IMG/VR virus record: IMGVR_UViG_3300045125_000039
Span: 4,475-68,474 of that record
Source: a virus
DNA length: 64,000 nt
Direction: 5' to 3' (one strand)
The translations under genes were made by a program, and so were the position numbers. The notes under the pieces were generated by a model that saw nothing but the letters and a program-made list of their open reading frames with translations, did no database searches and was not told the DNA's origin. Shown here one piece after another: positions 2,773 through 61,240 of this stretch (positions are counted from its first letter, which is position 1; every line of letters starts with the position of its first letter).

Positions 2773-4697
2773 TTAATTTGTTAAATCTACTAATTCACAT
2801 TTATCACGCACTACAAGCAAAAGTTTGTGTACCAACAGTTTGATCTACTTTCTCATACTTTTGTGAGTTCAGACCATTCAACATTCTTTGGCATCTTCTC
2901 AAGGAACGCTTCATAGTGTTCCTTTGTACAATCCTGATATGGTGCTTGACGATACGAGTGATCTGAGTGTGGTAGGAAGAAATACCACTGATCTCGTCAA
3001 AGTGCTTGTACACCCATGCACCAACCTCCATCCATTCATGCTCACGAACAGTTACTGTAATAGATGGCTTGTGCTCACACCAGTTACGCTGATATGCTAA
3101 CCAGAGTTCCAGAGTGTTCAATAGCACTCATGTCATTACGAGTAACAGATCCCTCTGCCTTCATTGGGAATGAGAAAACCATAACTGAGTCTGGCTTCAT
3201 GACACAAGGCTCGTGGGGAAACCCTTGTCAATCATGAGTTGACACAGAGGATCCTTACGATCTGCACGAACGGTGCGGATGTAGTATTGATTGTGACGAG
3301 CATGAATACCTGATGCTGCATCAGTAAGTTGTGATACAGTACCACTCGGCTTGATGCAGGTGATTGCTGCAGCAGGATTGATGCCCAACTTCTTTGCCCA
3401 TTCCTTGTTGGTATCGATTGCATGTTGCTTCAGATTCTCAAGTTTAGCGCTTGAGTCCATGCATGATCACGCATCATAGCGTTATCAAGAATACCTGTTA
3501 GAGATACACCAAGTAGTGCTTCTTCTTCACAGTTCTTTTTCCACTCTGATGAAAGATATGGGAAATGCAATAACGATGCTTGCCATGTTCCTAGAATAGT
3601 AGCAAGTTTAACCTTACGGGTTAGACTTTCTACAGTGTCATTTGTGCGAACAATCACTTCTGTGAGATTGCAGAACTGACGATCTACGTAGAATAATTTC
3701 TGAGCAAGGATTAGTACCGAACTCATAGGTTGGCATCACGACGATCACCTAGTTTGGCTACAGTCTTCTGGCAAGCGTCACGATTAAAGATACCACGCTC
3801 ACCACTCTTGCTCTTGTACAGCGACACCCATTCTTCCATGAATGTGCCGATCTCTGGCTTCTCCTTGTACACTACACTATTATTCGCAAGTGCTCTTTGA
3901 GGATTAGCTCCCACCATGCTCCAGTCTTAGCATCACGCATCCGTTCATCGGTAAGATTTGAAAGGCTGATAAGAGCCGATCTACGGACTCCTCCGACCAC
4001 CACAACTTCCGCAATCTTACAGACGATATCGTGGCATTCGATGGAGGTGAGTTTGCGTCCAGCTGCTCTTCTAAATGTATCCACAGTGAACCTAAACAGA
4101 TCATCCAGTGGCTTTGGGCCAGATGCACGACCTCCGAAAGTTTTGAGTCTGGCACCAGCAGGGCGTATCTTAGATAAGTCCCATCTTGGAATTTGACCAC
4201 CAATGAGTAGGGAGACAAGTTCCTTGTAAGCATTAGCCCAACCAGCTCTTACTGTCTTGTACAATGATTGTTGTATCTGAGTCAGTAAACTCTTCAGCGA
4301 TTGTAGGAAGTTTATCAACATAATGCCGCTCCACTGGAGAAACCGACGCCGGTTCCGCACATAAGAATGTATAGAATTTCATCGAAAGCACGAACACGAT
4401 TTACTGCAACATATGAGCAGTTGTAACCTGCAGTGTTGTCTCTTTCAGTGCTTCACCTGCTGTCATAAGAGCACGCATTGAAGGCATGATTTCAAGATTA
4501 AGAACTGCTTGACGAAGTTCTTCTCTTGTTGCCTTGTCCAACTTACTGCACATTGTATTCTCTTTGAGATGCTTATCAAAGTGATTAAAATATCGATCAA
4601 CAGTTTCTTCCCAAGTTTCTCTACGACCTTCGGTTTCCAACCAACGGCTGTAGCGTGAAAGATGAATAAACTCTTGATAGTAAGTTGGTAAATGCAT
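2773..4697 (-). CDS. nrdJ: Class II (adenosylcobalamin-dependent) ribonucleotide reductase, multiply frameshifted
   Basis: YQEFIHLSRYSRWL..GRRETWEETVDRY, PSMRALMTAG, GGVRRSALISLS, QRALANNS, DRQFCNLTEV, AITCIKPSGTVSQL, WCEHKPSITV, and a C-terminal ACSxDKCELVDL. Confidence 0.92.
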
Positions 4698-22359: not shown

Positions 22360-22758
22360 TACACTAGACTCCACAGTAAATCTGCCTTTACAAAGAGGAG
22401 TTGCAGACAGAATCGTTCAATAGTCTTATATAATAAAAATATGTTCCCTGATTTAATTCAGCCATAGTATCTGCATTGATTGTTAATTTAAATGAACCAA
22501 CTGTTCACCTGTCTTTGTTAAAGAACCAAATGTGTTTTGTGTATCTGGATACAACATAGTTCCTCTGTTTGTTCGCCGGTTGAATTCTATACCAAATAGA
22601 AAAATATCAGTATTTGTTTGAAGTTTTTTCAATAAAAAATCAATTATATAAGAATTTGATGTTATGTTTACAGGAGAACTATTTTCATCTAGATATTCAA
22701 ACTGAATCTCTAGTGTAGAACCTTCTTCTGCTAATATATCGTATGTTCCGCCTCTCAT
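22360..22758 (-). CDS. Adaptor/baseplate-upper-like protein (YDI..EEG.T type), frameshifted
   Basis: MRGGTYDILAEEGSTLEIQFEYLDENSSPVNIT...FKLTINADTMA...YFYYIRL..; heads the fibre cassette. Confidence 0.5.
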
Positions 22759-23164
22759 CGTTTCTTACCTATATGATATTTGGGACAAAGTTCCCAATCT
22801 TGTTTTTCTTTAAATGGAATAATTTTAATTTGATTTATTGGTGTGAGAATACTATTCATCTTATCCTTATCTGCTACTGCTAATAATCCCCACTCTTCCA
22901 ATAATTTAGCAATCATGTTTCTTCTTCCTATATCTGATTCATTTATATCAGATGGCAATCCATCCAAAGAAAATAATTCTTTAAAATGAACTATATAATA
23001 TTTTACCCTTTTTGTGTAATATATGACAGGATTGATATAGTTTTTTATCTTTTTTTTGAAGAAACTCCTATTCTAGTCAATGTTTCTTTTACCTTTAGGA
23101 AATCGTCTTCGTTTTTTAGGGTTATTTCTAATAATGAACCCACATCAAATGAGTCGTTTTGCAT
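22755..23164 (-). CDS. regA: RegA translational repressor, frameshifted
   Basis: DDFLKVKETLTRIGV...LYQSCHILHKRGKYYIVHFKELF.LDG...RRNMIAKLLEEWGL...IIPFKEKQDWELCPKYHIG. Confidence 0.93.
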
Positions 23165-37083: not shown

Positions 37084-38300
37084 TTATCCTTGAAGTGTCC
37101 TTCCGAGAACTTCAGAGTAAAGTTTGATATTATCGTTTACGAAAACTTGTTCTGGGTTATTGTCGGTTTCTTCCATTAAAGTGTCGATTACTTGACCAAC
37201 ATTTTTTGCATCTGCTGGTTTTTCTGCTATCTTTGTTGGAGTTGACTTAACCTTTGTATAATTCTCAACCAATAGTTTGACTTTTGAGCGGAAGTCTTCG
37301 GTGCTGGAGAACTCAACATTCTCTGCTAGTTTACGAAGATTCTCAGCGTCAATTGCTTTAGAGTCTTTGTTTCATCTGCAAATACTGCTTGTGCTTCTAG
37401 AAGAGCGATCTTCTCAGATAGAGCAATATTTGTTTGAAGTTCTTCATTTACTCTAGTTTCTAAAGTTTCTACTGCATCGACTAACTCATCAAATGCATTT
37501 TGCTTATCTTCAGGAACTTCGATATAAGACTCTGCAAAGAGATTCTTTAGTCCTTCAATGAAGTTTTCAGCAATCTCTGTTCTTAAACCATTGTCTACTG
37601 CTAACTTGTTTTCCTGTAATCCATTCTTGAACAACATAACTTAGATAATCGCTAATGTTTTGATTCAAGTTCTTCTGCTACTTGAACTACTGATTCTGCT
37701 AATCTTTCTTCAAAGATTGATGCCATTTGTTCAGTAATTGCTTGTAGATTTGTATTGATTGATGCCTCATAAAGTGCTGCTGCTTTATCAACAAATTCAT
37801 CAGATACATCAGCACCGAATAGTGTTTTTACTTCCTCTTGCATTTGTGCTTTGTTTAGAGATGGAAGTTCAACACCAGCAAATGATGGTTTCATTTGTAA
37901 TGTTGCTTGATTTGCACCTGCATTAACATTTGTTACTTCTGTTGTTTGGAATGCTGGTTTGCCGTTGACAGGAGTTGGTGTACCACCATGTGCATCTTGA
38001 ACAGCATTGCCAGTTGATGTTGCACCACCTGTGCTGCTGATGCCATAGATGGCTTCATTGATACTGATGCTTGGTTCTTACCTGCATTGCCACCTTAGAT
38101 TCTGATCCTGTTGATTGAGATTGAGCAGGTTCTTCATCAGCACCTTCGTCCTCGCCCTCATCTTCATAATCTTCACCTTCGTCTTCACTTTCTTCACTCT
38201 CTTCTTCTTCACCTTCCTCTTCGTCTTTTTCTTCGAAGAGTTCTTCGTTTTGTGGGAAGAGTTGTTCTAAAATTTCGTCTGCTAGTTTCTTTGGATCCAT
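37084..38300 (-). CDS. gp22: Prohead core scaffold protein, frameshifted
   Basis: Acidic N-terminus; FVDKAAALYEA, ENKLAVDNGLRTEIAENFIEGLKNLFAESYIEVPEDK; position between gp21 and gp23. Confidence 0.9.
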
Positions 38301-38329
38301 TTTTAATATCTCCTGTTCTTAGTCTGCAT

Positions 38330-38337
38330 TATTTATA
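38330..38337 (-). promoter_or_regulatory. T4-type late promoter TATAAATA upstream of gp22
   Basis: + strand tatttata 38330-38337. Confidence 0.65.
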
Positions 38338-38987
38338 TATTTTTAAATTTTGACAAAAAGTGTTCAAATATCTTTAATTGGGTTTCTTCTTGTAGTCTCT
38401 TTGGGGTTTTATTAAGTTTATTTTTATAATTCTCTAATTGGACTTCCTTAATAATTCCATTTTCCCATACCCATTCTTTACCTTCCATAATACCGTTTAC
38501 GAAAGCACCTGGGGCTGATGGGTCTGCTACGATGTCAACGGCTGCCAACATAAAGTCTGGTTGAACATAATTGACACCATTCATTTCCTTCAAAGAACCC
38601 ATACCGCGGCTAGAAACCCCTAGTTTTACACCTTCTTTAATTAAAGATTCTGCAATTTTACCCATAGGGGTTGTAGTTAAAATTTTGGCTTTTCCTACAC
38701 AAACATTACCCTCAAAGGTTAAACTTTTGATTGAATGTGATACTTGATTCAAATTTACTGTTGGGTTTTCTGGGTGTCCTAATTCACCTAAAGCACGACC
38801 TGCTTTTACGAAATTATCAACATAAGATTTTACTGCTGATTCTAGAATTTGTTGAGTATAAACTCTACCGTTACGGTTCTTTTCTTCAGCAACCATGTAT
38901 GGATTCAACAATGTACATAGACTTGGAACCTTCAGATTCCTCAGTAATATACTTAATATCTTGAATGGTTTCGGTAATTAGTTTCAT
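38333..38987 (-). CDS. gp21: Prohead protease, frameshifted near the start
   Basis: MKLITET..., KNRNGRVY, RALGELGHP, GVSSRGMGSL, DIVADPSAPGAFVNGIMEGKEWVW. Confidence 0.96.
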
Positions 38988-39261
38988 TTATTTTTTCCCT
39001 TTAATTGCTTTGCCAATTGCTTTTCTACGATTTAGGAGATACTTATCAGTACCATCAACATTACCGTCATTGTCAACATCCTTATCTTCTTTTCCGACAG
39101 GATCTAATCCTTCTTCAACTTGTTTTTTGTAAATTTCTGCTGAAAGTTGAACTCTTCTTTTCGTTTAAAGCATCATATGCTTTTGCGTATAATGTATCGA
39201 ATATATTCTTACGAAACTCTTCTACATCACCGTCTACCAATGATTCTATAAAATTTGACAT
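38988..39261 (-). CDS. Prohead core protein (gp67/gp68 position), frameshifted
   Basis: [28 protein letters not shown]...[36 protein letters not shown]. Confidence 0.7.
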
Positions 39262-39289
39262 ATTTTTTCCTCTCTTTTGGGGTCTGTTA

Positions 39290-39297
39290 TATTTATA
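39290..39297 (-). promoter_or_regulatory. T4-type late promoter TATAAATA upstream of the prohead core gene
   Basis: + strand tatttata 39290-39297. Confidence 0.65.
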
Positions 39298-39309
39298 TAG
39301 TTAATTATT

Positions 39310-42300
39310 TTAACCCACTTCACTTGGTGCTCTTGCACAGCAACAATAACCAGGACAACCAGATCTACAATCATCAAATGGTGCATTTCCACAATTACAT
39401 ATAATAACATTGAGTCCTTGACTACATGGGTTTCCTGCACATACACAATTTGTTGTGCTATAACCGGGAGTTCCTTTTGGACAATATTCACCAGAACATT
39501 CGGGTTCCTCGCCACCCCCACCACATCTGTCTTCATTGTAACAGAAAGCACAACTAGTAGATAAAGGACATCCAGTAGCACACGGAGTTACGCCGCAATC
39601 TACTCCACACCCTGAACCATTTGGACAAACAGCACAATTATTTGCATCTGGACAACCGCTATTGCAAGGGTTTGTTGCACATGCACCACCACAGTTTGGA
39701 CTATCCGGACATACCGAACAATTATCTGCATCTGGACAACCAGATGTACATGGACTTATTAAACACTGATCTTCTGTTTCATTACAATTTGGACCATTTG
39801 GACAGACTGTGCAGTTATTTTCATCAGGACATCCGGCTGTACAAGGTGATGATAAACACAAATCAATAGAAATTTCAATTTCAGGTAATTCTATGCAACC
39901 ATTTTCATCACAGTCACAATGTATTCTATTTTGCATATTGTATAACAAATTATCAGACAAAAGAGTATAGTCTGGTGTCTCTGGAAATAAAGTAACACTC
40001 ACTGGTGAATCATATATCTTCTCAAGTACTGGACTCGTTTGGAGGTCTTCCAGTGTTTTTTATAGACTCTTCTATCGCTGAGAATAATGCATTTTTATAA
40101 TTTGTTTCTAGATGAAATGGTGCTTGTTTTTTGGTACACAACATTTGTGTTGATCTGATAATCTATTTCCTTCTGGATTTAAATTCATAGCATAAGAATT
40201 ACAATTTCTAAGATAATATCTAATACCAGAAGATATTCCTCTATCATTATTTCCTACATTTTCTACACATTGATTTGCATATATTACTTTATTTTGTTTT
40301 GTCGAAGACGCTGTTTGAATACAATCTCTTCTCCAATAATCATTCGAAACCAATTTGATTATATGACTTGATGTTTTTGGTGTCTTATAATCTTGACCAC
40401 CGGGTGATGGTATTACAGTAGTGCCAACTACACTATTGTTATAATCTCTAAATTGATTACAACCACAATCTTGACCTGTAGGACAATCTGAACCAACTCT
40501 ATTATCAAAAGGATATCCTGATGTATCCGATCCCGGTGATTGACAATATTTTACATCACCAGTGAATCCAGTTACATTTAAATCTACTTCTTTTCTAAAG
40601 ACAGTAGCACATGGTAATCCCACACACATGTGTTTTGATACTGCTCAAAACCCAGGAGAACCACCAGGTTTTTTCTCAAGATTAATATTTTGCACCACAG
40701 ATGGAGCACCACATTCACCACAAGAACTTGTTGCGGTTGTACACCACTCATCTTGTATGTTTGATGTTCTTGGTAGTGGTTGATTATGGCATACTTTATG
40801 GGCACGAAGTGCACCCTCCTGGTCTTTGTCTTGGGCAATTATTAAGACATGATTGTAAATTAAAATAATAAGTTCCAGAAGTTGGTTCAACTGTTGTGCA
40901 TTGACAGCATTGACAATTTGGCACAGAACCACATGTAGTTGGTTGGCATATTTTGACATGTATAATATTGACACTTGTAAAAACTTGCTCCAAGTTTATC
41001 AATACAAGTTTGGAAAACTAAACTATCCAAATTCAATCCAAGTGAAGTTGCTCTTTCTAATGTCCAGAAACAATCATAATTACTAAAATCTGTAGGAACA
41101 CCATTTATTACAACTGTTCCTAATGCTTTAATTGCATCACATGTCATAAGTTCACATGGAGAAGTTGGTACACCAGATGAATCTACCTCTTGTAGGATCA
41201 CAATCTGTGCTGTTATATAAATCTCTTACTTTCATCGTTCTCAGAGCACAAAGATTTGTAGAATCTGATATGTTTATTACTTGTCCTGTCTTTGGATTTG
41301 TTCTACAAACTGTTGAAACATCTGGTTGCATACTACCACACCCACACCAATTTTCGCTAGCACAATTACAACCACTTGAATTAAAAGTAGTAAATGCTTC
41401 TGATGTGTTTGTTCTAATATAACTGTATGATGTATTTGATACTGGTTGAGATTTGTGATTACCGGGACACAAATCCCAGGTTATTATATCTCTGATATCT
41501 GGTGTTGACCAATTTCCTGTTTTTGGAAATGGATTTTCTTCATCTATTCTTGGTATGTTAAAACTTTCACATGGATTTGTACAGCAATTTTTAGAGTTCA
41601 CATTCTTCAACAGGAGGTTGTAACTCTCATCTATTTCTGAAGTAACAGTATAGTTTTGACAATCTTGAACTACTAGATTTTAAACTAGTTATACCAGTAT
41701 TCATGCATGAAATATCCTGGCAATCTGTTACCAGATTCATCATATCTTGGTGCTCTGTTACAATCATCAGTTCCACCAGCACCTACAACCTCATCTACTG
41801 AACATGGAAAAAGAATTTACAACATTGTGAATTGCAAAATCCTGAAAGTTGACTACCTGATTTTATACAATTTTCATAGGTGTCAACATTAAATAATCCA
41901 GAAGCAGACAACTCTTCTATTCTTCTCCTACAAGAATCACATGGGAATGGATTTAATTCGCCATTTCCACTAGATGCTATACAACTTGTATCTGGACAAC
42001 ATTTATACCATTTACAACCACCTTCATTTGCGGTTTTACCACAACCAGATGCTCTAGCAGAAAATACTCCGCTTTTACCATTATAATTTAGCGTTAAATT
42101 AATTGTATTCATCCTCCACCATTTCCACAACTACCAGGAGAACCTATGTTGCTATCTATTATTGCAACTATTATATTTGTTATCACTTCCACTCAATATT
42201 GGTGCTATTTCTGCTGCACTCAAAACAGTAGACCCTGATGGACTACCAACTCCACACCCACCTGCACATGCAGATACTGCTCCTATTGCACCTTTTGGTA

Positions 42301-45300
42301 CATATGTTTCGGTAGTTGAATTATATTGAAACCACTCAAAGCCAAATCTACCACATGAGTCACATCTTCCGGAAAATTTAAAGTTGCATTGGCAGATGAA
42401 TTATAAACAAACGATTGACTTGGTTCATATGAACAACCACCATTTTGTCCACTACTATTTAAAAAACTTACAGGAAACCCTGCTGCATATTCTAATAGAT
42501 CTTTAGTTACACCTTGACCTAAAATCATCAAAGAAATATTACCAACAAACCCACAGCAAGTATTTGGTCTATACCCATTACAAGCAGATCTTGGTTTATA
42601 ACCATTGCGCTTTTAAATTATCAAATATATACATGGGCCAGGATTTGAAAAACCAGATAACCCATTAGAGGCAGTTACTATACTGTAATCTTTATAAACT
42701 CCTGGCATAATTTACCCCCTCTAGGTATAAATGGTGCACACCCCTCAGCATTGCATGTTGGATCTGCCAAGCATTCCGATCTAGTCCAAGATCTTGGTTG
42801 TCCATCTGGTGTAGTTTTGTCAATATTCCTTCTGCTCTATATTTATCACAAGGGTTTGCACAGCAACAATTTTCACCACATTCATTTTTTGGATATAAGT
42901 CATAATTGTTTTTTCTTGTTATACAGTTCCAATAATCAGTCAAAGACTTATTAACATATACTGGTGGATATACATCAATACCACTTCCAGGATTTTGTGC
43001 TTCTGCTGCATTTCTTAAAGCCCTAAGTGTTGGATGTCCAGATGAACCATATTCATCCTTGAGATCACATGACGCATCACAGTTAAATTTGCAGCAACCA
43101 GATCTTGAACAAATATCAATTTGTGAACATGTAAGATTATATCTTTTGGACAACCGCTACAGTTTATACTACAACAATTTCTATCTTTACATTTTCTAGA
43201 TGCAAACACTCCTGATTGTTTAAACATTGCTCATATTCTGATATATTATCAGCAACACAAAATCTGCACACTCTTGACAACATCCCTTTCTATCATAAGA
43301 ACCACCATCTGCAGCAACACATTCAACATAATCAAGTGGCGCACCTACGCAAGGATTTACACAACAACTACTTAGATCTGGATTGCCTGCACATTCTGGT
43401 GATTGTAGACATGCATCATATTCCATCTTTGTATTGCTTGGACATGAATAACACTTACTCCTCTTGCACTCAGGATCATCACATTCACAATCTATTCTGT
43501 TCTCTAAAATATATGATAAATTTTTACTATAATAGTTCAAGTTTGGTCTATAATTTGATTGTATATCTGAACCATCGTGTAGAGCATCTGCTCTAAACAT
43601 TGTGTTTGTTTCGCCATAAGGAGTAAATTCTTTAATAAATGGTCGCTTATCTTTGGCAAACAGCATCTACTCACATTTGAAATTTCTGCGTTCGGACTTA
43701 TGTTCATAGAATATGAAGCACACTTTTCTATAAAATACATACCCAAAGCATTTCCGCTGCTTCTAAAGATGTATCGTTTAAATAAGGATCTCCAACATCT
43801 TCAAAACAATTCGATGTGTATATAACTGAATTTTGTGAAGCATCTAAACTATCTGCTATGTTTGGAGACATTCTAATTGTACAATCTCTTTCATAATAGT
43901 CATTAGAAACTATTTTCATTATATGACTACCCTGAAAGGAGATCTCCAGAGTTGATCGGCTTCACTTCCGTCAACTGGTCTTTTCTGTCTATAGTTTTGT
44001 CCATCTGGATACAAGACCAATCAACATTTCTTGTTTGACTACAACCAACAGATTCCTCTAGATATTCTGGAACACTAATTGAAAAATTACAGCCACATAA
44101 AACATAGTCGCCACCACCATATTGTGACCAAGGTAATCCCGTTGTTTTAAACCCACCCTGTGTATTCCAATTAGAGTTTGTTATGTTTGGCTCGGTGATC
44201 TTTTCTACTATTGCTGTATCTACCAAGTGATGGAATTTATTTCCAACAAAAACAACCATGATTGTATTATCATCAAAAAATGGTTCTAGTGGAAGAGTGA
44301 CAGTTGCATTTGCAGTTTGACCAGTATTGCCCTTATTTGCACCATTTCTAAACCAACCAGAGTACAACAAATATTTCATAAAACACTTGTTGGATGTGCA
44401 TCTCCATCTATTGTTTTTTCTGATAAAATATTAAATGTATCTCTTTCTCTTCCGTCTATAACAACTCTTCCGTATGTTCTACAACTGTAGAAAAGATCCC
44501 ATTTAAAAAATGCAATAGAAACAGTCAATGCTTCAGAATGCATACAACCAAAATTTATATTTACTGTTGAACCCGGTGCTGCAACTAAGACATTATCAAA
44601 TTCATTTTCATTTACACCAAAGAACCTAAGTTCTTCTCTATTCATTCTTGGATGTCTTATTATAGGATGAACTTTTAAATCACCAGGATGATTTGGATTG
44701 CTTATTCTATTTACTCTTTTTATTACAGGAGTAATTTCTTGAAATTTTATTCTATATCTTTAATTATTGAATGGATTAAGCTGATTCCTCTTGTTCTTTT
44801 TCTTCTAGGTTGATCTGGATTAGTAGATAAGTGGTTGTCATTGTTTCAGAAACATTATTTCTCTTCCAACCAGCAGGATTATCTTTAAAACAACCATAAA
44901 AAACATGACAGAAAAAATCAAACCACTGACTACACCCTGCTTGTCCACCCTCCCATAATGCTGAACCGTTGGCAGTGACATTTCTTGAATAGTCAAAGTA
45001 ACCACATGCATAAGGATAATTGCTTCTTGGCACTCCAGGATCATCATCTTCTCAAAACTGTTTTACCAAGTGTTCTTCCCTGTGGATTATCTCCACCCTG
45101 AACAGTTCCAAAATAACCACTATCAATAGAGTTACCAACACACATGTGTCTTGATATATTAAAAAATCCAGGCTTACCGCCAACTGCTTTTTCCAAATTT
45201 ATATTACTAATTGTAGTTGGAGCACCACATGGTTGATATTGACATTGAATATCACTAGCAGGAACAGTTCCTTGAGGTGAAATTAATGGTAATGGTGGTG

Positions 45301-45322
45301 GTATATTGTCTTGTGCACTCAT
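39310..45322 (-). CDS. Giant cysteine-rich protein X (about 2000 aa if one gene), multiply frameshifted
   Basis: Plausible start MSAQDNIPPPLP at 45322. Successive Cys-rich ORF fragments join across frames to the clean stop after GYCCCARAPSEVG at 39310. The last 230-aa fragment has about 39 Cys by my count. Confidence 0.6.
39525..39860 (-). repeat. Four tandem 6-Cys repeats (about 28 aa): C..PC.xGCP...NC.VCP....C
   Basis: PCTAGCPDENNCTVCPNGPNC / PCTSGCPDADNCSVCPDSPNC / PCNSGCPDANNCAVCPNGSGC / PCATGCPLSTSCAFC. Confidence 0.9.
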
Positions 45323-48300
45323 GGACTCGATCCAGATTTAGTATCGTATTTTTTAAATCTACCATTTCTCTTATCGGATTGATAAGGGTTTCCACAGACC
45401 AATATTTAGAGTGTTTCTGTTTTGTATTAAATCCAGTTTAGTTGTCATATTGACATAGTTGCTACAGCACCAGCCAACCAGTATTTGTGTTTCTAAATGT
45501 TGGATCATAATCATTTTCTTTACAAAATTCAGTATAATCATTTAATGGAATAAATGAAGAGCAATCGATTTTAGATGCTTTTGTTTTTGTATTCTTCCAT
45601 CCACATGTTCCTTTGTTATTGTCTCCATCAACTTCCCATATCCACAAATCGATTAAATTACCATCTTTGTTTTTTAAATTTCTAACATATTTGTTCGTCG
45701 CATATGTTATAGCACTACCAGTATTCACCATCTCTGTTCAGTGTATGACCATGAAAATTAAAACCACCAACTACTCCTGTGTACATTTCTTGTTTCAAAT
45801 GCATCGTTGCCATCTTTATCTTTTACTTTTAATTGTGTTTTCCATTCAACATACCAGAACAAGTAGTTTTCAGTTATTTGTTTGTTTGCTGCTTGTATTG
45901 CTTCTTCTTTAGTAGAAAACGCGACCAAACCATCCATAGTCGCTCCAAGGTAAACTTTTTGATTATACTTATCTGGATCTATTGCCATTCTTTGAAATAA
46001 ATCTATATCAGATGTTATTTGTTCACCGAGGATAATCTTTCCATCTACTATAAAGACAACACCAAGAATTTATATGTGCTTGATATGGTAACACAGAAGA
46101 ACATTTTTGACCAACTCCTAACTGTATAGACAGCAGGAGTTCCTCTTCCACCTTTTCTATCAAACTCTATGCAGGAACAATAGTTCTCGGTTATTACTGT
46201 TGACATTAGTTTGGGTCCTACTATATTTGGTACTACAGGTCCTGTAATATAGGAGTCACATCACCAGTTGATGCTTTCATTGAACATAGAATTGTTTTTG
46301 TTAATAGCACGCCTGGTTTATAGCCCCATTCACCCCATTCTTCCGTGCCTTTATCTCTACAATTAATATGATAAGCATCATGTAATCTTCCCAATTTAAA
46401 TAATGTTTCATTAAACTCTTGAATTTGATTACTCTTCATCAACACACCAGAGTTCAAGAATGAGATTGGTCTATTCCAGAAATATAGTGGATCAAAGTTA
46501 TCGACATAGAAATTCTGGAAGTAACCACTGTTCAATCCATTATTCAATAGGAAAGAAGTTACATATTGATATTTGTATGCTCTCTGCTGGACCCGGTTCA
46601 TTTGAATTTTCTGCTTGTAGTCTTGAATTCTTATATGAGTCCCAATTTAATCCAACATTAAATGTTCTAAGCGGAGTTCCGTTTATGTACTTATTTGGAC
46701 CAACAAGAGGATACAACTTATCTGTTTCTGGACTAATTGTTATAGTTTTTGTTCCATCAATTTGTAATTCATAAACACTTGGGAACGCTTCAGTTCCTGG
46801 ACTTAGAGTGTTACAACCAGTAACTCCTGTATATGTTTCAGAATTCCAATATTTAATAGGAACAGCAGCAATCATTACTTCGTCCATACATGGTAGAGGT
46901 GAGCAAGAGCATCTAGATGAACCAATAAAAGATCCTGCACCAGCAGAGGTATTATCACATGGATAATATGATGTAGATGCTCTTCTACTATAATACAAAT
47001 ATGTTCTAGGAACACCTGCAGTATAGTTAGGATCTGTTGCTGCATATACAGATGGTAATCCCTTATATGCCAATTCTGCTGATGTAAATTCATTTTCAGG
47101 TGCTAACTTGACGCCAGTAACTACACTTAATGTTGAATGTGTTAATATTGAATTTGTAGAATCTGCTTCTGTTCTTAACTTCTCATAGCAAGAAATACAG
47201 AAAGGAACAACTGCTCTATCATTTTCTTTATTGTTTCCACAACAATTCCATAAATTATTTGCATTAAACAAATGTTCATACCATAATTTAGATGTTCCTG
47301 TTGATCCAGATGCTGCCAGTTCCAATAAGAACCCATAGGAACTAAAGATCTAAAACCAAGATCTGTAAACTTCTTGGACTTATCAAAGAACCACCATATT
47401 CTCTATATTGTGATTCATTAGAATCCCAACAGAAAGGACTCTTATCTCTTGCATATGGGAAGTATGGATTTTCTTCTGGAACAGGATTTTTTGATGGTAC
47501 ACAATCTGGGTCTGCAGCACTAGTTCTAATTTATTATCGACTATTGCTTCAACTTTTCTTATTTGAGGAAGATTTGCCTTCCATAAAGAAACATTATTCG
47601 CCTCAAGAGGTTGTTTGTGATTTGGAACCCAAGGTTCTGTTATAGACCAGTAGGTATTATTTTTATAAATTGGTGTCACCAGTTATATAAATGTCACCAC
47701 AACGAACACATCTACAATCTATGTTATATTTTAAATGTATAGAGGAACCAAGAACATCTATTCCAGACTTATTATAAAATGGACTCAATCTAGCAGATTC
47801 ATTTCTGCCAACATTTTTTAGTTCATAGATTGCATTTGTTTTCTTTTCCAAACACTCCATGCAGTCATCAAAGTAGAATCCTTCTGCCAATCCAAGATCT
47901 GAATATGTTGCTTGTTTGTATCCTTTTGCAAATGTAGCATCTGTTCCCACCACCAAGTAAGAATCTTCCAACATTGGAATCCAGTATTGATTTTGGGAAA
48001 TAACAGTTATCACCGTCCGTGAATATTTTACCAACAACATCACCAACAACTGTGAACTTTAATTTTCTAAATTCATCAACAGGTATATCTTTCAATTCAA
48101 ATGCAGAGTAATCTGGTGCTTCTTTATCTGCAAATTTTAACATCTTATCAATACTTCTTAATGGTTTGTATGAATTTACATCACACGATGAACATCTATC
48201 ATCTGTTGATCTTTTCTTACCACCAGACAAACAATTTGTATCTCTAAGGTAATCTGCATCACCAAAGTCTAAAGAGGTTCTACTTGGTCTGCAATATTCG

Positions 48301-49207
48301 AATGCAGTTTGATCAGCAATTTCCCCAGAACCAGTTCCAGTTATATAACCATTGAATGGTAAAGTTGGATTTAATGGAATTATAAGTTCCTTTGTTAATT
48401 TAACTCCTGCTGCTATTATTTGTGCAGGATCATATATTTGATAATATCTGACAGTTTGTGGATATGCTGCTTCGAGTCCCTTGAATCCCCAAACAGATCC
48501 AAAACGAGACTTCACCATATGCGTCTAGTGGATTTTCACCTTCTTCTCTTTGAAGATCGCTCTACTTGCCCAACAACCAACTACTTCACCAGAATTACAA
48601 CTAACCGCACACTGATAAAGTCTATTTGCACCATGGCACGGTCCATAACCAAGCCCAAAATCCAGACATTGCATAGAATTTATTAAAAACTTACTTCACC
48701 GTTTGCACTGGGAAATTTCTCCAACCAGTTGTGCTACTAGGAGTCCATGATTGACCATTGTATAATTTGTATTCAATATAAGCATCGGAGTAATAATAAT
48801 CGGTAGTGTTTGTTTCAATTCTGTTATCCACTATAGGCATGCCGCCGCCGTAATCTGGTGATCTATCTTCATCTAATACGCCAGATATTGAATAATCTAC
48901 TCTTGCCAATAAAATATCTGCAAGACATGATACTTTTTTATCACTGAATGGAGGGAATAGTGGTTTTTCACATTCGCCACAACTAGGAACATAATTAAAC
49001 CCTTGAGTATAATCAGAACAACCTAGAGAAGTACATCTGTTAAAACTAGCTCGATAACTTGGATCTCTGTGAGATTGACTCTTGACTATATCTTGTTTTG
49101 GTATTGTGGTGGATATAATCAAACCATTACTACCATCTACTCTTGATTTAAAAATAGGAGTAGTAGATTCTATAGTGATATAAAATGTTGATAGGTCTGT
49201 TGCTCAT
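45319..49207 (-). CDS. Large moderately Cys-rich protein Z (about 1300 aa if one gene), frameshifted
   Basis: Start MSNRPINIL at 49207. ORF fragments 48691-49122, 47868-48518, 47663-48049, 47383-47679, 46540-47325, 46233-46601, 45758-45988 and 45462-45731 overlap end to end. No family recognised. Confidence 0.5.
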
Positions 49208-49208
49208 A

Positions 49209-49792
49209 TTATCTTGTGATTGCTGGTGTTACTACGAATCTTCCTTGTAATATTCTAAAAACTACTGTATTGGAATCCAAACCATCAGTTATATTCTGAA
49301 AGTTTGCACATCAGTAGCAACGTGCTGGTAATTTATAAAACACTAGTTCAAGATCATACAGATAATTACCATAGTTTATTCTTCTTGTTATAAAAGATGA
49401 TAATGATATTTTTAAATTTGGTGTTGGTATTTGTTGTATTCCAACTGGTAATCCGTCTGATAGACTCAAATCAATTGCATTTGACCCTAGAGGATTATAA
49501 CTTTCCCCGTATAATGAAACAGGACCAGAGTCTGTTGCGTTCAGGGATTCAATTCTACTATTCCACCGTTTACAGAATTTCTAACTTGCATTTTTGCAAA
49601 TACACCACACTTACCTGCTCTAGTGGATTGTGCTAATTCTGTTTCAAATCCAGATGGTATTGCTGTTATCGAAGGTGCACGAGTATTGCCTTCATTTAAA
49701 TTAACAACTATATTTGTTGCGTCTTTAAATTTTAATTTAAGTTTATAACTAGTGCCTTCTTCAATTTGTATGTCATAATAGGCTGCTGGCAT
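49209..49792 (-). CDS. Adaptor/baseplate-upper-like protein (YDI..EEG type), frameshifted
   Basis: MPAAYYDIQIEEGTSYKLKLKFKD...AKMQVRNS...YDLEL...LQGRFVVTPAITR*. Confidence 0.55.
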
Positions 49793-51413
49793 CGAAAGGT
49801 TTACCTCCTGTTGGATCTGCTTGTGGTGCTACCGTATTTATACCACCTGCAGAGGTCTGACCACCAGTAGGTGCTCCGGGTTGACCCATTTCTTGTCCTT
49901 GTGGAGATAAACCAGCAGCAATTGATGCTTCTTGTTGCTTTTGCATCTGTATCATCTGTTCTTCAGTAATTTCAGCATCAATTTGTACAATATCTTGATC
50001 TGTTTGACGCAATAGATTCTTTCTTAACCATCTATCAGAATAGAATTTACCAGAATAGTCTGCTGCATCTCTTAGAATTGATATTCTATCTCTTAATATT
50101 TCATGCTTGCTTGGATTCTGCAAAGTAGGAGTCTGTAGCAAACTTAAAGTGTTATGTCTTGCTCGATACTCTTCCAATCATCCTCACTCATTACTTGTTT
50201 TGCTAATAATTGAACTCTCAAGAAGTTCAAGAATAATTCACTAAACTTTCAAACGAAGTCTATTAATAAACTTTGAAAATTTTAATTCATCTCTTGTAAT
50301 TTCAGATGCTCTTCCCATATTGAAATCCGTATTTCGGCTTCGATTCTGACTAATAGGAATGTTGAGTGACTTTAACAATTTCTTTTGGAAGTAAAGAACA
50401 TCTTCCATCTCTCCAAGATTTTGACCACCGGGTAAAGTTGAAATTTCTGTTCCTTGACCACCTCTCTACGGGGTAACCAATAATCTTCCAACATGCTCAT
50501 GTGTTTACGATCATCACGAATTTCTCCGGTATTTGCATCGTAAACAAGTTTATTGCGAAATCTATTCATCTGATCACGCATATATTGTTCTGCTTTATTC
50601 TTTGGCAATGAACCAACATCGATATAAAATACGCGACGCTCTGGTGCTCTTGACCTAACGGTAGATTACAGTAGCATCTTCAACCATTCTCAATTGATTG
50701 AGTGGCTTAATTGCTTTGTGTAAATAACCAACTATTCTTTTACTTGCAGTAGTCATATAACCCAGAATGGACATAGTTTATGCTATCTGCTGGATATTCT
50801 TAATCCCTTTGTATCATATGGATTTAATTTTTCATAGTTAGAAAATACATAATATTCCTTTACATCTTTGACTAGTGGAACATTTGCAAGTGTTGTATCT
50901 TTCTTTACTTCTCTTATCTTCTTTATTAGAAGCGGATCTATAAGACGAACTTCCTTCAATCCCATCGTTGGGTCGTCGTGTAATATGTGATGATAATACA
51001 TTCTACCATCAACATACCATTTTCTAAAAATTTCAATACCCTTCTTACTAAAATTTAGTAGAGTATAAAATTATATCAAATTCACCATAGATAATATCTT
51101 TTATTTCATCTGGTATATTTACTTTATCCAAATCTAATTGAAGAACTTTACCAGTTGCATCTTCTGTTATTGCATCATTGCAATATCGTCAATTGCAGCA
51201 TCCACTTCTGAATGCAGAGACATTTCTCTGTATTTTCTTATTAGTTCAACATCACCTTTGAGTGTTCCATCCAAGTCAATATATTGACCTTGAAAGCCCA
51301 CCACCTTCGACAACACTAGCACCGTCATCAATTGCTTTCGGTACAAATGACTCTACTTTGTCTTGTGTGTCGTTCTTTTTTCCAAATGTAAAACCAAATA
51401 ACTCAAATGCCAT
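49773..51413 (-). CDS. gp20: Portal protein, frameshifted
   Basis: MAFELFG, WYVDGR.YYH, RAPERRVFYIDVGSLPKNKAEQY, RNKLVYDANTGEIRDDRKHMSMLEDYWLPRREG. Confidence 0.96.
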
Positions 51414-51429
51414 AATAAAGATCCTTTTC

Positions 51430-52169
51430 TAGAAGAAGAGTAAGGGGTTTGTGATGTCTAATTCCAAACCCATTACCACCTGCTGTTGATATACCGAAGG
51501 AATTGTTTCCACTACCTCCACCAGTACTTATGCCGAATGAATTTCCTCCTGCGGTGGTAACACCGAATGAGAATCCATTTCCTGATTGTGACTGGTTGTT
51601 TACGCTAGGCACCAACACCAGCAACATTGACTGCACTGTTTGTTTGGTATGGTGAGAGGCTCTGTCACGAAATATGAGTACTTAAAGGTTACTTGGAATT
51701 CTGAAACAGTATCATTTTGATCATAACCTAGTTGTACGGATGATACTAATTCTTACTTTATATCAAAGAACTGATACCATTTTACTATTTTGTAACTTCT
51801 GTCTAACTGTGCTACAGTAGCAACACCGAATGCTTGTCTTGGGTTTGGATACTGTGTTGAGTTACCAGCATGGGTATTAAACAATTCATTCCACAATTCA
51901 AATGTATTTCTTAATGTCATATTTTGATCATTGATTACATCAATAGTCCAATCATCATATGTACGATCTCCGGGATAACAGTGCCATACGACCGAGGTAT
52001 GGAACATTTACTTCACCAAGATATGATTGTGGTAACATTGCTGCTTTGCAGAAAAACTGTAATTGTGGAAGTGGACTCAACGGGACAAACCAAATTTACA
52101 GAGTAAAGATTTGGTCTTGAACCGCCGTCGAAAGCGGACATGAATGAATTGATTGAAGAGTCGAGCCAT
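51430..52169 (-). CDS. gp19: Tail tube protein with Gly/Phe-rich C-terminal extension, frameshifted
   Basis: GGSRPNLY, FFCKAATLP, PGDRTYDDWTIDVINDQNM.LRN.FELW, F.VTF.Y; follows gp18. Confidence 0.88.
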
Positions 52170-56391: not shown

Positions 56392-59300
56392 TTAAGTTGC
56401 TTGTTTGCAGCAGCAATAAACTCTACATACATCATTTGATATACATTCTTCATAGTTGTCAGAACATGTTGTGCATGTGGCTCTGGTGGACAACATTCAT
56501 TTTCCACACAGTAAACATCTGTTTGACATTCTTTGTAATAATAGTTATTGCAAAGATCGCATGGGTTATTACAACAATTATTTTGAACACATACTGGATC
56601 TGCTGAACACTCTGCATACCCTTCTTTAGTTCTACTCTTGTTGCATGGTGTACATGGATTTGGTGGGCAACAACCTTTTGTAACACATGTTGCATTTTGT
56701 ATGCATGTAGCATAATCCCCTGGACAATTTTCACATGGTGGGGTTTCTCTGCAACATATATTCTTTACACATTCAAGTTATATTAGAACAATTTTCATTT
56801 CTACAACCAAAACATGGATCGGGTGGTGGTGCATTACAACATCCCTTATCTGCACAACCAGAAGTTGTTATACAAGTTGGATATGCTGATTCTTTATATG
56901 GTGGACAACTTGAACAAGGATTTGTACAACATGGTTGACCTGTTCCCCATGTATCAATACAGAAATTCTTATTTTGTTTATTAATACATGTTATATATTG
57001 ATTTCTAGTATCGTCTTGACAACGACTAGATTTACAACTACAGCAACCAGGAACACCAGCATCTGGTGAGTTGCTACATCTTGGATCTGGGTGTGTGCAT
57101 GAAGCATTAGGATGATCTGGATCATTCTTACAATCTAAGCATGTTGGTGTAGTTGGACAACATCCTGCTGCAACACATGCTGAATTTTTGTTACATTCGA
57201 AGTAATTTGTTGAACAACCTAAACATGGATTTGTACAACATGGATGATCCGGACTCTGTTGTGGTGGGACACAATCTGGGTTTGCTAAACATGCTTCATA
57301 TTCTGCTTTAGTAGAGGATCTGCAATTATTTAAAATACAAGGAGCAAGACCACAACATCCATTCAGATTACATCCAGGATTTAATATGCATGTATAATAA
57401 GAATTGGGATCTGCATCTAAACAACCTTCGCATGGATCTATTGAGCAACAACCATTGGATGCACATGTTAGATTAGAATAACAATCTTGTGGATTTTCAT
57501 AATCACAACCAGCACATGACGGAGGTTCTGCATATACAGCAACCTGCATTCTTACAGAATGAATCTTGCATACATGTTGTAAAGTCTTTGGAGCAGTTTG
57601 TACATGGATATACACAGCACCCTGCTTCATTGCAGCATTGATTTTGTTTACATGCCTTCCAGCCCATTTATTGTGGCTAGAATCTGGACAATTCATATTT
57701 GTACAATTGCAGTGTGAACAACAACCATTTTGAACACATTGTGCGTTTGCTTTGCATTCTGCACATGTATTTGGACAACCGGAACAAGGTTCTGTTTCTC
57801 TTCTAATACAACATTTGTTAGTTGCACAATAGGAACTTTCAATACACAATTGATATTCTTGTTCAGTATCACATACACCACCATTGTCTCTGCAATGGTT
57901 GCAAAGATCACATGGTCCGGGTGGTGGAGCATCACAGCAACCTTTAGCAGCATATGGTGATCTTTAAACACTGATTATAATCTTTTGGTTTTCCTATGCA
58001 TGGATTTGTACAGCAACCAGCAGTTACACATGAAGGAGTTGTTCTACAAATATCATATCTTAATTTTGTATCAGTTAAACACTGTGATCTATTACATACA
58101 CAACATGATTGATCTTGACATAAAGAATCTGCATTACCGCATGCAGTTGGGCTTACACAATGCACATGTAAACACACCACATGAACATCCTTTCTGTCTG
58201 TATATTGTTTAAATTCATTATTTGTTCCAGATTCTGCGGCCTTACATGCTCTCCATTTTTCTATGGTATCAATAATTGGCATACCTGAGCATGGATCACT
58301 ACAACAACCAGAACTTAAACATGTAGTATTCGTTAAACAATTTTGATATTGTGTTACAGTTGTACTAGCACAAGCAGAGTCATTGCATGGACAACAATCT
58401 GTTTCTGGTGCTGAATTATTTTTACATCTTGTATCGGTACTTGTACACGAAGTAGAACCACAATACGAACACAAGAAAGAACCACAACATGCGTTATCTC
58501 TTAAACCACTGAATATACCAGTGTTTTGCAATACACTGGTCATATAATTGTGGTGTGGTTATTAAAGATAAAACTGGAACACCACTTAACTTACAAGGAT
58601 CATCACAGCACGAAGATTGTGGACAATTTACTACACAATTCTCATATTCTGCCTTTGTGCTAGTTGCACATTCACTCTTTGAACAAATACAACATCCACC
58701 TTCCCATGTTTGACAAATTTGGGGCAGGTACACTGTTCAAAGTTTCTTGAACATTCACAATATGAAGTATCCAATTCACCATCACCATCCCTATCAAATG
58801 GTTGAGTACAATAAGAACAATTAAAATTACAACACTCTAATAGACTCCACTGTATATTATTAGCATTAGTATTAGCGGTATCTACACAATTCCAATAAAT
58901 TGATGGAGCACCTGTACATGGATCTGGATCCACAACAATTAATATTTGGACAAGATGCAATACAATTTAACCATTCAGATTTTGTAAATCCCATTGATGT
59001 ATCTGATGCGCTGACAAACTGGATTATCATCACATGTACAACACGATGGACATTGTGAAAATGTGGTGTTTGCACAAACTGTCACCGGATCCGAACCACA
59101 CCATGAACAATTCCAATTTCCACAACATGCTGTATCAAAGCCTTCCAAATCCAGAGTAAGCACCAGTTCTTGTTATGCACTGATTATATGTCACTCCATC
59201 TGTTGGTGCTGGTATAGATGCACATGGAGTTTACACAACAAGCCTGGAGTTGGACAACCACCTTGTGCTATAGATTTGATGCAATTTTCATATTGTGCTT

Positions 59301-61240
59301 TTGTTGTTGTAGCACATGCTGGAATATTACAGACACAACAACCATTACTGGAACATAGTGGTTCAGAATTGGCACACACTGCTACTGGATTAGCACCACA
59401 CCATGTGCAGTTAAATGATCCACAACAAGCAGGATCATAACCAGCGTATATTCCCTGACCTGCTATGCATTGTTTGTAAGAGGTTATACTTGTTGGTGGT
59501 GTTCTTGTACATGGATTTGTACAGCAGTTACTATCTCTACAAATTTGAGTTGCAGAATTTAGAGCGTTTATACAATTTTCATATTGTGCTTTTGTTGAAG
59601 TTGTACAAACAGAATCATTGCATACACAACAATCTGTTCCAGGACTTGAAGGGTTCTTACATCTTACATCTGTGTTTAAACATATATTTGGTTGAGTACC
59701 ACAGTATTCACACTTGAATGTTCCGCAGCATGTACTGTCAGTTACTGTACTGAATTTACCTGTCTTTGCTAAACAAGCATCATAGTCTGCTACTGTCTTG
59801 ATTTCTGACTGTGCTTCTTTTCCACCAGTTGTTAAACATGGATTTGTACAGCAGCCATTTGTTGTGCATTCTGTATGTGTTAAACAATTCTGATATTCTG
59901 TTATTGTATCTGATGCACATTGTGGGTCAGCACATGCACAGCATCCACCTTGAGGAATACTTGTATCACTAAATCCTTTTCTACAATTTGGATTTGGACT
60001 ATTGCATGGATCTGAACCACAATCTCTTAAACAATCTTTTATACAACACCCAAACTGCATGCATATTGAATCCTCTTCACATAACCAATAATCATAAGTA
60101 TTAACACATAATGGTTCTAAAGTTGCACAACTATCTACACAACATTCCTGACAAGGACATGATATAATGCAATTTTCATATTCTTGTTTAGTATTTGTAA
60201 AACATTCTGTTCTTACTTGGCCGTCTGCCTTAACACATGGACTTTGACCACATGAACATCCAGTTATATCTGGGTCACAGATACCACCAGATGCATAATC
60301 TCCCAATCTATTCTCGCAATTAAAATATTTTGTACAATAATCTGGATCGGTTGGATTTATTAGACAAGTTCCCGGACATGCTATAGCACAAACCAAGACC
60401 CCAATCTTCCCAAAATTTACAATTTGGAGAATTTTGTGTTTCTGAAAAATTTAAATCACTACAATAAACTGGTTCATTATTTGCATCCATGTATGCTATT
60501 GTTGTTTGACAGGAACAACCCAAATCATCACCTATTGAACCCAATCCACATGGTTTATAGTTTCCAAGAGAACCACATAAACTGCCACAAGAATTGGAAA
60601 CACAGAAATAAGAATCCGATCCCGGTTGTAAATTTATTGGTTTATTTATTCTAGAATAACAAAGTCTTTTTAAATCTCTATCTGTTATATCTTCGCAATT
60701 TTCTAAATTATCACAACCATAATCTGCTGCATCATCATAAAGTGCAGAGGAATCTGAAAATATACTATTACATGTAATTGCTTCTATGTAAAGTGTATCA
60801 TAAACTGCACCATATGTCTCACCAGCATCACTATAACCTTCTGCACAACCTGTATCTGCTGGAAAAAGTTTAGAGTGAATACCATCAGCTTAGTGGTTTG
60901 TAGCATCTTACTTCGCTAACTGCATGGCCAATTTGTTTTTTTCTCCGAAGCAGGATAAAAGGTTTGTTGATTTGTACCTATATACCAAAATTGTTTACAT
61001 TTACAACAAGCATTTGGTGAAGTTGCGTGACAGTCTCCCCCTTCCTACACCATTAGCACAACAATTTTCTTTCATTATTATTTAATGAATTTGGTTTGCA
61101 ATAATGTCTTCAACAGGGTTTGTTGTTCCAACAGCATGGTGACTCTCCTACAATTACAGTTACCATCAGAACAAGGTTTTATACATGAGTCAGGTGTACA
61201 ATCTGGACACGGATTTGGTGTGCAAATGAACTATATCTAA
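56392..61240 (-). CDS. Cysteine-rich repeat region of a giant protein (about 1600 aa; start not resolved), multiply frameshifted
   Basis: Fragments 59191-60396 (about 64 Cys in 401 aa by my count), 57944-58543 and 56773-57849 among others join into a continuous Cys-repeat reading that ends ...VCRVYCCCKQAT* at 56392. Confidence 0.75.
57950..59960 (-). repeat. About seven copies of a roughly 100-aa Cys-rich unit
   Basis: Unit CC.C....C...TK..YENC......C....CC.NPC......Y..C......CCG.F.C..CG..P..C; examples CCVCNDSVCTTSTKAQYENC, CCVCNIPACATTTKAQYENC, CCICSKSECATSTKAEYENC, CCPCNDSACASTTVTQYQNC. Confidence 0.85.

Follow-up and report, generated by a model that had tools for sequence, protein, structure and literature searches.

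Structural proteins of tailed phages are normally poor in cysteine (Cys) because they are assembled in the reducing cytoplasm. Particles built with disulfides are documented from freshwater and soil: in cyanophage Pam3, disulfides tie the fibres (gp24), which contain a TNF-like domain, to Cys-rich regions of the wedge (PMC9942802), and Agrobacterium phage Milano has a disulfide network in its sheath and baseplate (PMC10811340). The genomic frame for the locus described here is the T4 head operon (gp20-gp67-gp68-gp21-gp22-gp23), whose flanking genes and order are conserved in a 64,000-nucleotide (nt) stretch of viral DNA, termed the window (positions 4,475 to 68,474 of IMG/VR record IMGVR_UViG_3300045125_000039). 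In T4, Synechococcus phage S-SKS1 and Methylophilales phage Melnitz only small genes lie between portal and protease, whereas the window carries at this site an island of ~10.5 kb (39310-49792, minus strand) with six genes, A-F. The portal-protease gap is ~0.7 kb in Melnitz and 1.8 kb in S-SKS1, compared to 8.5-11 kb in the clade that carries this cassette. The product of the island is most likely an accessory appendage of the fibre type, borne externally by the virion and stabilised by disulfides or metals, a reading that has about an even chance of being right.

The genes were delimited from intact relatives, junction sequences and profile hits. The reference for intact genes is contig L001 (IMGVR_UViG_3300023174_003074), in which a fragment of B is 63% identical and the genes are collinear with the minus strand of the window by tblastn. 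The features of the island are as follows:

49209-49792, minus strand: gene A, ~194 amino acids (aa), Cys-poor (tblastn, 71-76% to L001 A)
~46233-49207, minus strand: gene B, ~990 aa, ~3% Cys, an orphan (tblastn and junctions; its reading is broken by indels)
~45319-46223, minus strand: gene C, ~300 aa, ~4% Cys (tblastn, profile hits and junctions)
42692-45322, minus strand: gene D, ~876 aa (tblastn and profile hits)
~40797-42665, minus strand: gene E, ~620 aa, boundaries approximate (tblastn, 27-31% to L001 E; junctions)
39310-40792, minus strand: gene F, ~493 aa, a short paralogue of D (tblastn, 47% to L001 F; hidden Markov model (HMM) hits)
39313-39930, minus strand: Cys tail of F, 206 aa (spacing of the Cys units)

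The original prediction, made from the letters of the window, had placed a block between the portal gene and the gp67-like/gp21 genes, and this block is present at 39310-49792 on the minus strand. The same prediction read the block as an adaptor gene followed by giant proteins of ~1300 and ~2000 aa. The giants do not stand: the longest open reading frame (ORF) in the window is 401 aa, and the collinear relatives that are intact encode separate proteins, each gene having a start and a stop of its own (A ~195 aa, B ~1000 aa, C ~295 aa, D ~860-1480 aa, E and F variable). The '1300 aa' is thus B plus C, and the '2000 aa' is D plus E plus F. In L001 the proteins are A of 195 aa (0.5% Cys), B of 1018 aa (3.0%), C of 295 aa (4.1%), D of 863 aa (6.4%), E of 509 aa (6.9%) and F of 291 aa (5.2%).

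The Cys content of these proteins is extreme and conserved in position. L001 B-F include 148 Cys in 2976 aa (5.0%), compared to 20 in 3047 aa (0.66%) for seven flanking core proteins. The invariant Cys amount to 25 of 31 in B (81%, versus 23% of all residues), 11 of 12 in C (92%, versus 39%) and 9 of 19 in the D/F core (47%, versus 7%). Cys is the best-conserved residue in the B, C and D/F families; thus, the Cys richness is not due to chance. C is the most conserved island protein, with a mean column identity of 71%. The highest densities are in C-terminal tails. The D tail (16% Cys) is formed of six-Cys units of the type C-x2-C-x6/10-C-x5/11-C-x4-5-CC-x2-3, with a Cys spacing that is kept in homologues only 33-50% identical. 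The F tail of the window is of a second spacing type, with four 28-aa units (C-x4-C-x3-C-x5-C-x2-C-x5-C) and an end of GYCCC, and is absent from L001 F. Open fragments of E have 7-10% Cys and a Cys-rich C-terminal end. The density that had drawn attention to the locus (about 17% Cys in its last fragment) is borne out, as Cys makes up 15.7% of the last open fragment (39313-40059, 249 aa) and 18.9% of its 206-aa tail.

A second Cys-rich region resides at 56392-61240 on the minus strand, upstream of the terminase genes, with open fragments of 16-17% Cys. This region is built on the D-tail unit C-x2-C-x10-C-x5-C-x4-CC and is matched by D tails in tblastn.

An island of this kind could be an artefact, whether a mis-assembly, a chimeric join or an out-of-frame reading of ordinary genes that gives a false Cys richness, and the state of the record invites this suspicion. 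The window, 64 kb out of one IMG/VR record of 74.4 kb (CheckV completeness ~33%), is riddled with frameshifts: all conserved genes are split across frames, including those for terminase, sheath, portal, scaffold and capsid. An alternative genetic code was considered as the cause and rejected, as the omission of any one or two stop codons leaves the frames closed. Public contigs were aligned to window positions 38300-51500. A contig of 11,647 nt (depth 35) from run X1 covers window positions 38463-50118 without a break, from protease to portal; relative to the window it shows 51 substitutions and 75 gaps, the indels listed being all of one base (e.g., an extra A immediately past the ATG of gene B). 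Shorter contigs from three other studies agree at many of the positions at which the X1 contig and the window differ. As these independent contigs disagree with the indels of the window, the frameshifts are errors of an unpolished assembly and not biology; thus, ORF-based annotation of the whole window is unreliable.

The errors do not extend to the existence of the island. Both borders are bridged in the X1 contig and each is also bridged in other runs; thus, the island is not chimeric, and the join with eukaryotic DNA that the original prediction had named as its own possible undoing was not found. Gene order is kept in six distinct relative contigs, which have intact ORFs with an equal Cys pattern, the Cys columns are invariant across homologues, and 12 studies have runs that contain words of the island (labelled freshwater, riverine, estuary, lake water and, in one case, 'soil'). 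The GC content of the island is the same as that of its flanks. With bridged borders, intact relatives and invariant Cys columns, the artefact or chimera reading was rejected, and its probability is considered negligible. One contig end in run X1 hints at a joint of 38988 to 50281, which skips 11,292 bases and leads from the protease start into the portal gene. This joint is probably spurious and not an island-less variant, because its shorter side has only 21 letters and the portal would be truncated.

The architecture of D and F gives an indication of what the cassette may do. D is ordered as an N-terminal anchor motif, a jelly-roll domain, a conserved module (M) and the tail of six-Cys units. 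The paralogues D and F share the N-terminal motif NLEK..GG.PGF...RHMCVG and a module of ~190 aa with invariant Cys, while their middles and ends are wholly different, F being without the jelly-roll and having a Cys tail of its own. A conserved anchor with a variable distal end is the classical layout of phage fibres. Variation at the distal end is also apparent in relatives, in which TIG Ig-like domains are detected (eight stretches in a 1233-aa protein of L002, four in L007 D and one in L009 E). Ig-like domains on phages are characteristic of surface-exposed proteins. The TIG arrays in the variable distal genes of relatives resemble the Ig-like surface proteins of phages (Hoc-type decorations and Ig domains of fibres or tails), with the difference that the L001 and window fragments scanned have Cys-repeat arrays at the corresponding distal positions. 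The L002 protein is encoded by the fifth island gene of that contig (13156-16854), has more than 1233 aa and at least eight TIG domains, and runs off the contig end; it illustrates how far the distal cassette genes vary.

Structure prediction adds a hint. In the AlphaFold2 model of D (mean predicted local distance difference test score (pLDDT) 53), residues ~160-440 form a jelly-roll sandwich (pLDDT 70-86), the only confident globular part, and the Cys tail is modelled as short helices (pLDDT 56-82). The best structural neighbours of the jelly-roll are trimeric knobs of the TNF/C1q type, CBM22, BclA, PRD1 P5 and a short-fibre domain of a cyanophage. The VIA-align alignments have Z of 4.7-5.8 against the tool's guide of Z 8 (root-mean-square deviation 2.8-4.2 over 109-138 residues), and the modelled likeness to TNF/C1q-type knobs is thus taken as a hint and not an assignment.

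Pam3 and Milano are among the closest known systems. In Pam3, a myophage from freshwater, the fibre subunit combines an N-terminal attachment domain with a TNF-like jelly-roll, and Cys-rich regions hold the fibres on the particle via disulfides that necessarily form outside the reducing cytoplasm. By contrast, Pam3 uses a handful of Cys, whereas the cassette has 148 in five proteins together with six-Cys arrays; the sequences are not detectably similar, the two lie at different genomic positions, and the cassette is known here from its genes. In Milano, virion stability and triggering likewise depend on many Cys-Cys bonds between structural proteins; however, the Cys of Milano are in the core sheath and baseplate, whereas here the core proteins are 0-1.3% Cys and the Cys are concentrated in an added cassette.

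On the proposed model of an external appendage, the proteins would be carried by the virion and would divide the work. A would be a small leader or adaptor protein, as opens the fibre gene clusters of cultured relatives; B and C would form conserved proximal or scaffold parts; and D and F (and E) would be interchangeable distal subunits, D and F docking via their common N-terminal anchor. The outward modules would vary between a jelly-roll/lectin-like domain, arrays of six-Cys mini-domains and, in some of the relatives, TIG arrays. These modules would be held together by the invariant Cys, most probably through disulfides formed after the particle leaves the reducing cytoplasm or, alternatively, through metal binding at all-Cys sites. 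The original prediction of a head-associated appendage or coat is thus upheld in part: an external appendage is the best reading, whereas the association with the head has no support other than gene position. An internal head protein is opposed by the lectin-like jelly-roll, the Ig-like arrays and the logic of the anchor, and the sole link to known genes leads to fibre clusters by neck and baseplate genes.

This sole link is through A, which appears to be a distant small beta protein of the phrog_1084/phrog_3304 type with an insertion. A matches phrog_1084 with E 1.1e-9 over profile positions 69-116 and, in its N-terminal part (3-41), with E 5e-5, with an insertion of ~85 aa between the two; the match to phrog_3304 has E 0.13. 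In hhalign, A is aligned to Melnitz gene 184 with a Prob of 59%. Gene 184 is a member of phrog_1084/phrog_3304, is annotated as tail fiber and lies directly before fibre genes, upstream of the neck genes; the fibre labels of Melnitz derive from depositor annotation and from PHROG matches of genes 186 and 187. The Melnitz cluster (MZ577097.1 genes 184-188) and the cassette are alike in that a small A-like beta protein comes first and large fibre genes follow in Melnitz, the orphan genes B-F following A directly in the window, and Melnitz is a related Kyanoviridae-type phage (capsid 54% identical). The cluster differs in its position upstream of the neck genes and not after the portal, in fibres that are unrelated to B-F and not Cys-rich, and in that A has the ~85-aa insertion and matches only remotely. 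The label 'adaptor' that the first reading gave to A is unproven. Separately, a weak paralogue of the A N-terminus is noted at 22486-22764 on the minus strand (MRGGTYDILAEEGSTLEIQF...; HMM E 0.0085).

Several observations weigh against an external appendage. A-F are known here from genes alone. The position between gp20 and gp67/68/gp21 is the prohead-core site of T4 and favours an internal protein. The link of A to fibre clusters is remote, consisting of a partial PHROG match, a Prob of 59% and a depositor annotation, and the A1 HMM does not match Melnitz directly. No TIG domain (PF01833) is above threshold in the L001 proteins or the window fragments scanned. The mean pLDDT of 53 for D is low, and the AlphaFold2 model of B (12 sequences) has a pLDDT of 28 and is unusable. 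The Z of the D jelly-roll is below 6, a range that the tool calls a common arrangement, and Foldseek searches of the D model against viral, PDB, AFDB-cluster and Atlas libraries give only noise. Disulfides are not established, as the Cys counts are without an even bias and the groups of four Cys in B resemble Zn(Cys)4 sites.

The position of the cassette is an argument for proteins internal to the head, either an enlarged prohead core or ejected proteins, which would be loaded into the procapsid beside gp67/68 and the scaffold and in which the Cys clusters would be zinc sites folded in the cytoplasm. The cassette is exactly at the T4 prohead-core site, between the portal and the phrog_1064 prohead gene plus protease, and cultured relatives have 3-4 small ORFs there. 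The invariant Cys groups of B (C-x2-4-C...C-x2-C) are zinc-knuckle-like, and a (I/V)-(E/Q)-E motif at residues 10-12 of A resembles a gp21 cleavage site, although it is too short for significance. Cleavage motifs of the (I/L)-x-E type are, however, not conserved in B, and a single such motif within 20 residues is near chance. TIG arrays, a lectin-like jelly-roll and a common anchor with variable ends suit surface fibres better, and ~3000 aa of tightly stapled Cys-rich modules would pass the tail tube poorly. In addition, some homologues have another residue at three Cys of CxxC pairs, a tolerance that is unusual in Zn ligands. An internal location is thus rated as rather improbable.

The chemistry of the Cys is a separate question, as a virion appendage might use its Cys to bind metal (Zn, Fe, Cu or Fe-S), with six-Cys arrays that are metallothionein-like or cluster-binding and are folded in the cytoplasm. 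The proteins are without a signal peptide and must fold in the cytoplasm, the tails of D and F are 16-19% Cys with almost no His, and B has local groups of four invariant Cys (58/63/76/79, 191/200/204/212, 305/325/338/341 and 762/776/778/783). The number of Cys is even in 15 of 35 proteins, with no parity bias; thus, parity does not separate disulfides from metal sites, although the lack of a preference for even counts leans to metal. On the other side, no Pfam metal-binding or Fe-S family is matched, even at E<=10; the six Cys per unit, the conserved aromatic and Pro/Gly positions and the fixed loops resemble small disulfide-stapled folds; and the disulfide-built particles of Pam3 and Milano provide precedents. 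Moreover, the two homologues of B in which C338 is replaced also lack C509, a joint loss that would be expected of bonded partners. Of the two chemistries, disulfides formed after release are the likelier. A metal-binding appendage is unlikely overall, while all-Cys metal sites are a real alternative, especially for B.

Profile searches do not place the Cys modules in a described class. Four Cys tails and two fragments of the second Cys-rich region have no relevant match in Pfam at E<=10, and EGF, knottin, granulin, metallothionein, Zn2Cys6, 4Fe-4S ferredoxin and zinc ribbons give no profile match (Pfam E<=10; NCBIfam). It is a possible, though doubtful, extension of the appendage model that the six-Cys units, in their two spacing types, form a new class of mini-domain that is made in reduced form and 'cured' by oxidation or metal after lysis, which would give a redox- or metal-switched adhesive appendage from five clade-only families. 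No Erv1/ALR sulfhydryl oxidase is encoded in the contig, a result that is uninformative as the record is only ~33% complete. Odd Cys counts are observed for C in five of six homologues and for short F-type proteins in four of four, among few sequences; judging from these counts, one Cys may be left unpaired for an intermolecular bond.

That A-F are known from their genes also leaves room for late proteins that are not part of the particle, such as lysis factors of the host envelope, agents of superinfection exclusion or released decoys. Signal peptides, transmembrane segments and enzyme families are all lacking in the island proteins, however, and the sizes, the layout of an anchor with variable ends and the Ig-like arrays are typical of structural proteins; the tight coupling to the portal gene likewise speaks against such a role. 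A non-structural role is thus regarded as distinctly improbable.

The cassette is conserved as a unit. Its order is constant in six distinct relative phage contigs (L001, L002, L003, L005, L007 and L009); L004, L006 and L008 are further samplings outside this count. In L002-L009 the order is portal, A, B, C, D, variable E/F-type genes, the small prohead gene and the S77 protease, followed downstream by scaffold, gp23, a gp3-like gene, UvsY and UvsW. Identity among the relatives is 33-58% for D and 38-69% for B, compared to 75-88% for the portal; the island thus diverges faster than its neighbour. E of L001 and E of L009 are 40% identical.

Outside this group relatives are scarce. Among 5.8 billion proteins, 12 relatives of D and 10 of B were found, all metagenomic, and among 1.84 billion representatives the D/F core profile picks out no more than 17 proteins, all members of the D/F family. 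No match was found for A, B, C, D, E and the F tail by tblastn against 50,697 phage records, to which the DNA likewise has no similarity. Pfam, PHROGs and NCBIfam have no match to the island proteins except phrog_1084 for A; PDB profile searches with A and C have no match; and the ESM Atlas has no usable match to D and C. The F tail has no match among viral and metagenome contigs or in a protein search, the B fragment matches only L001 and L010 among these contigs, and the A-F HMMs do not match the S-SKS1 and Melnitz loci. The nearest cultured phages (S-SKS1, Melnitz and cyanophages) have capsids that are at most 55% identical. The cassette is confined to an uncultured clade of T4-like (Kyanoviridae-like) myoviruses, mostly from freshwater. 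The original description of the island as undescribed is consistent with the lack of a known decoration or fibre family in Pfam, PHROGs, NCBIfam, PDB sequences and the 50,697 phage records, and a literature search found no description of such a cassette.

Clade-specific accessory structural cassettes in phage late operons and Cys-dependent virion architecture are already known. New are the scale and density of the conserved Cys, the two six-Cys repeat modules and the five families without relatives in cultured phages or libraries. T4-like phages can accommodate large accessory cassettes at the portal-protease junction, here a conserved late block of 8.5-11 kb with ~150 mostly invariant Cys and arrays of 16-19% Cys, which a dozen studies have in their metagenomes. 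Should the proteins be carried by the particle, the use of disulfides in virions that is described for Pam3 and Milano would be extended to a far larger scale, and at least two Cys-repeat modules would be defined as new, along with several protein families. Such particles would also raise the question of how a phage folds or cures these domains, and of whether redox or metal availability gates adsorption.

Judging from spacing, direction and promoter-like sequences, A-F are laid out as one late, structural-type transcription unit. All six are read in the direction of the portal, protease and capsid genes, and the spacing between neighbours from A to F is -20 to +12 nt; the start of A overlaps the portal stop, and the stop of C overlaps the ATG of D. 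Two candidate promoters frame the unit:

49835-49842, minus strand: late-promoter-like TATAAATA, 43 nt upstream of A and within the 3' end of the portal gene
39290-39297, minus strand: second TATAAATA, directly past the F stop

The motif is 17-50 nt upstream of A in L001, L003 and L007 as well. The window has seven copies (1938, 18824, 34538, 35531, 38330, 39290 and 49835), all on the coding (minus) strand, and the five at 34.5-49.8 kb are just upstream of gene starts; the total of 7 versus 5 expected is not above chance. The second copy is consistent with a mark for the end of the island transcription unit and the start of the prohead-core genes.

The surrounding core is collinear with that of T4-like phages of the Kyanoviridae type (terminase, sheath, tube, portal, prohead core, S77 protease, scaffold and gp23). 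The flanking genes are as follows:

55767-54098, minus strand: terL (tblastn collinearity with L001)
54060-52234, minus strand: sheath (tblastn collinearity with L001)
52162-51523, minus strand: tube (tblastn collinearity with L001)
49776-51413, minus strand: gp20-type portal (PF07230 and phrog_213 on the C-terminus; tblastn)
~38990-39261, minus strand: small gp67/68-like prohead-core gene, context (begins MSNFIESLV..., matches a small ORF of L001)
38336-38987, minus strand: gp21-type prohead protease, context (94% identical to the L001 protease)
38318-37087, minus strand: scaffold (tblastn collinearity with L001)
37028-35601, minus strand: capsid (tblastn collinearity with L001)

The small gene after F is considered gp67/68-like because its orthologues match phrog_1064 'prohead', and the orthologues of the protease carry PF03420 (Peptidase_S77). 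Large genes of the surface type are also wedged into the packaging module of relatives: L007 (1-3033) encodes a protein of more than 1483 aa with GH85_C, Ig and fn3 domains upstream of terS, and Melnitz (L012, 3121-5154) encodes a protein with an F5/8 type C domain between terS and terL.

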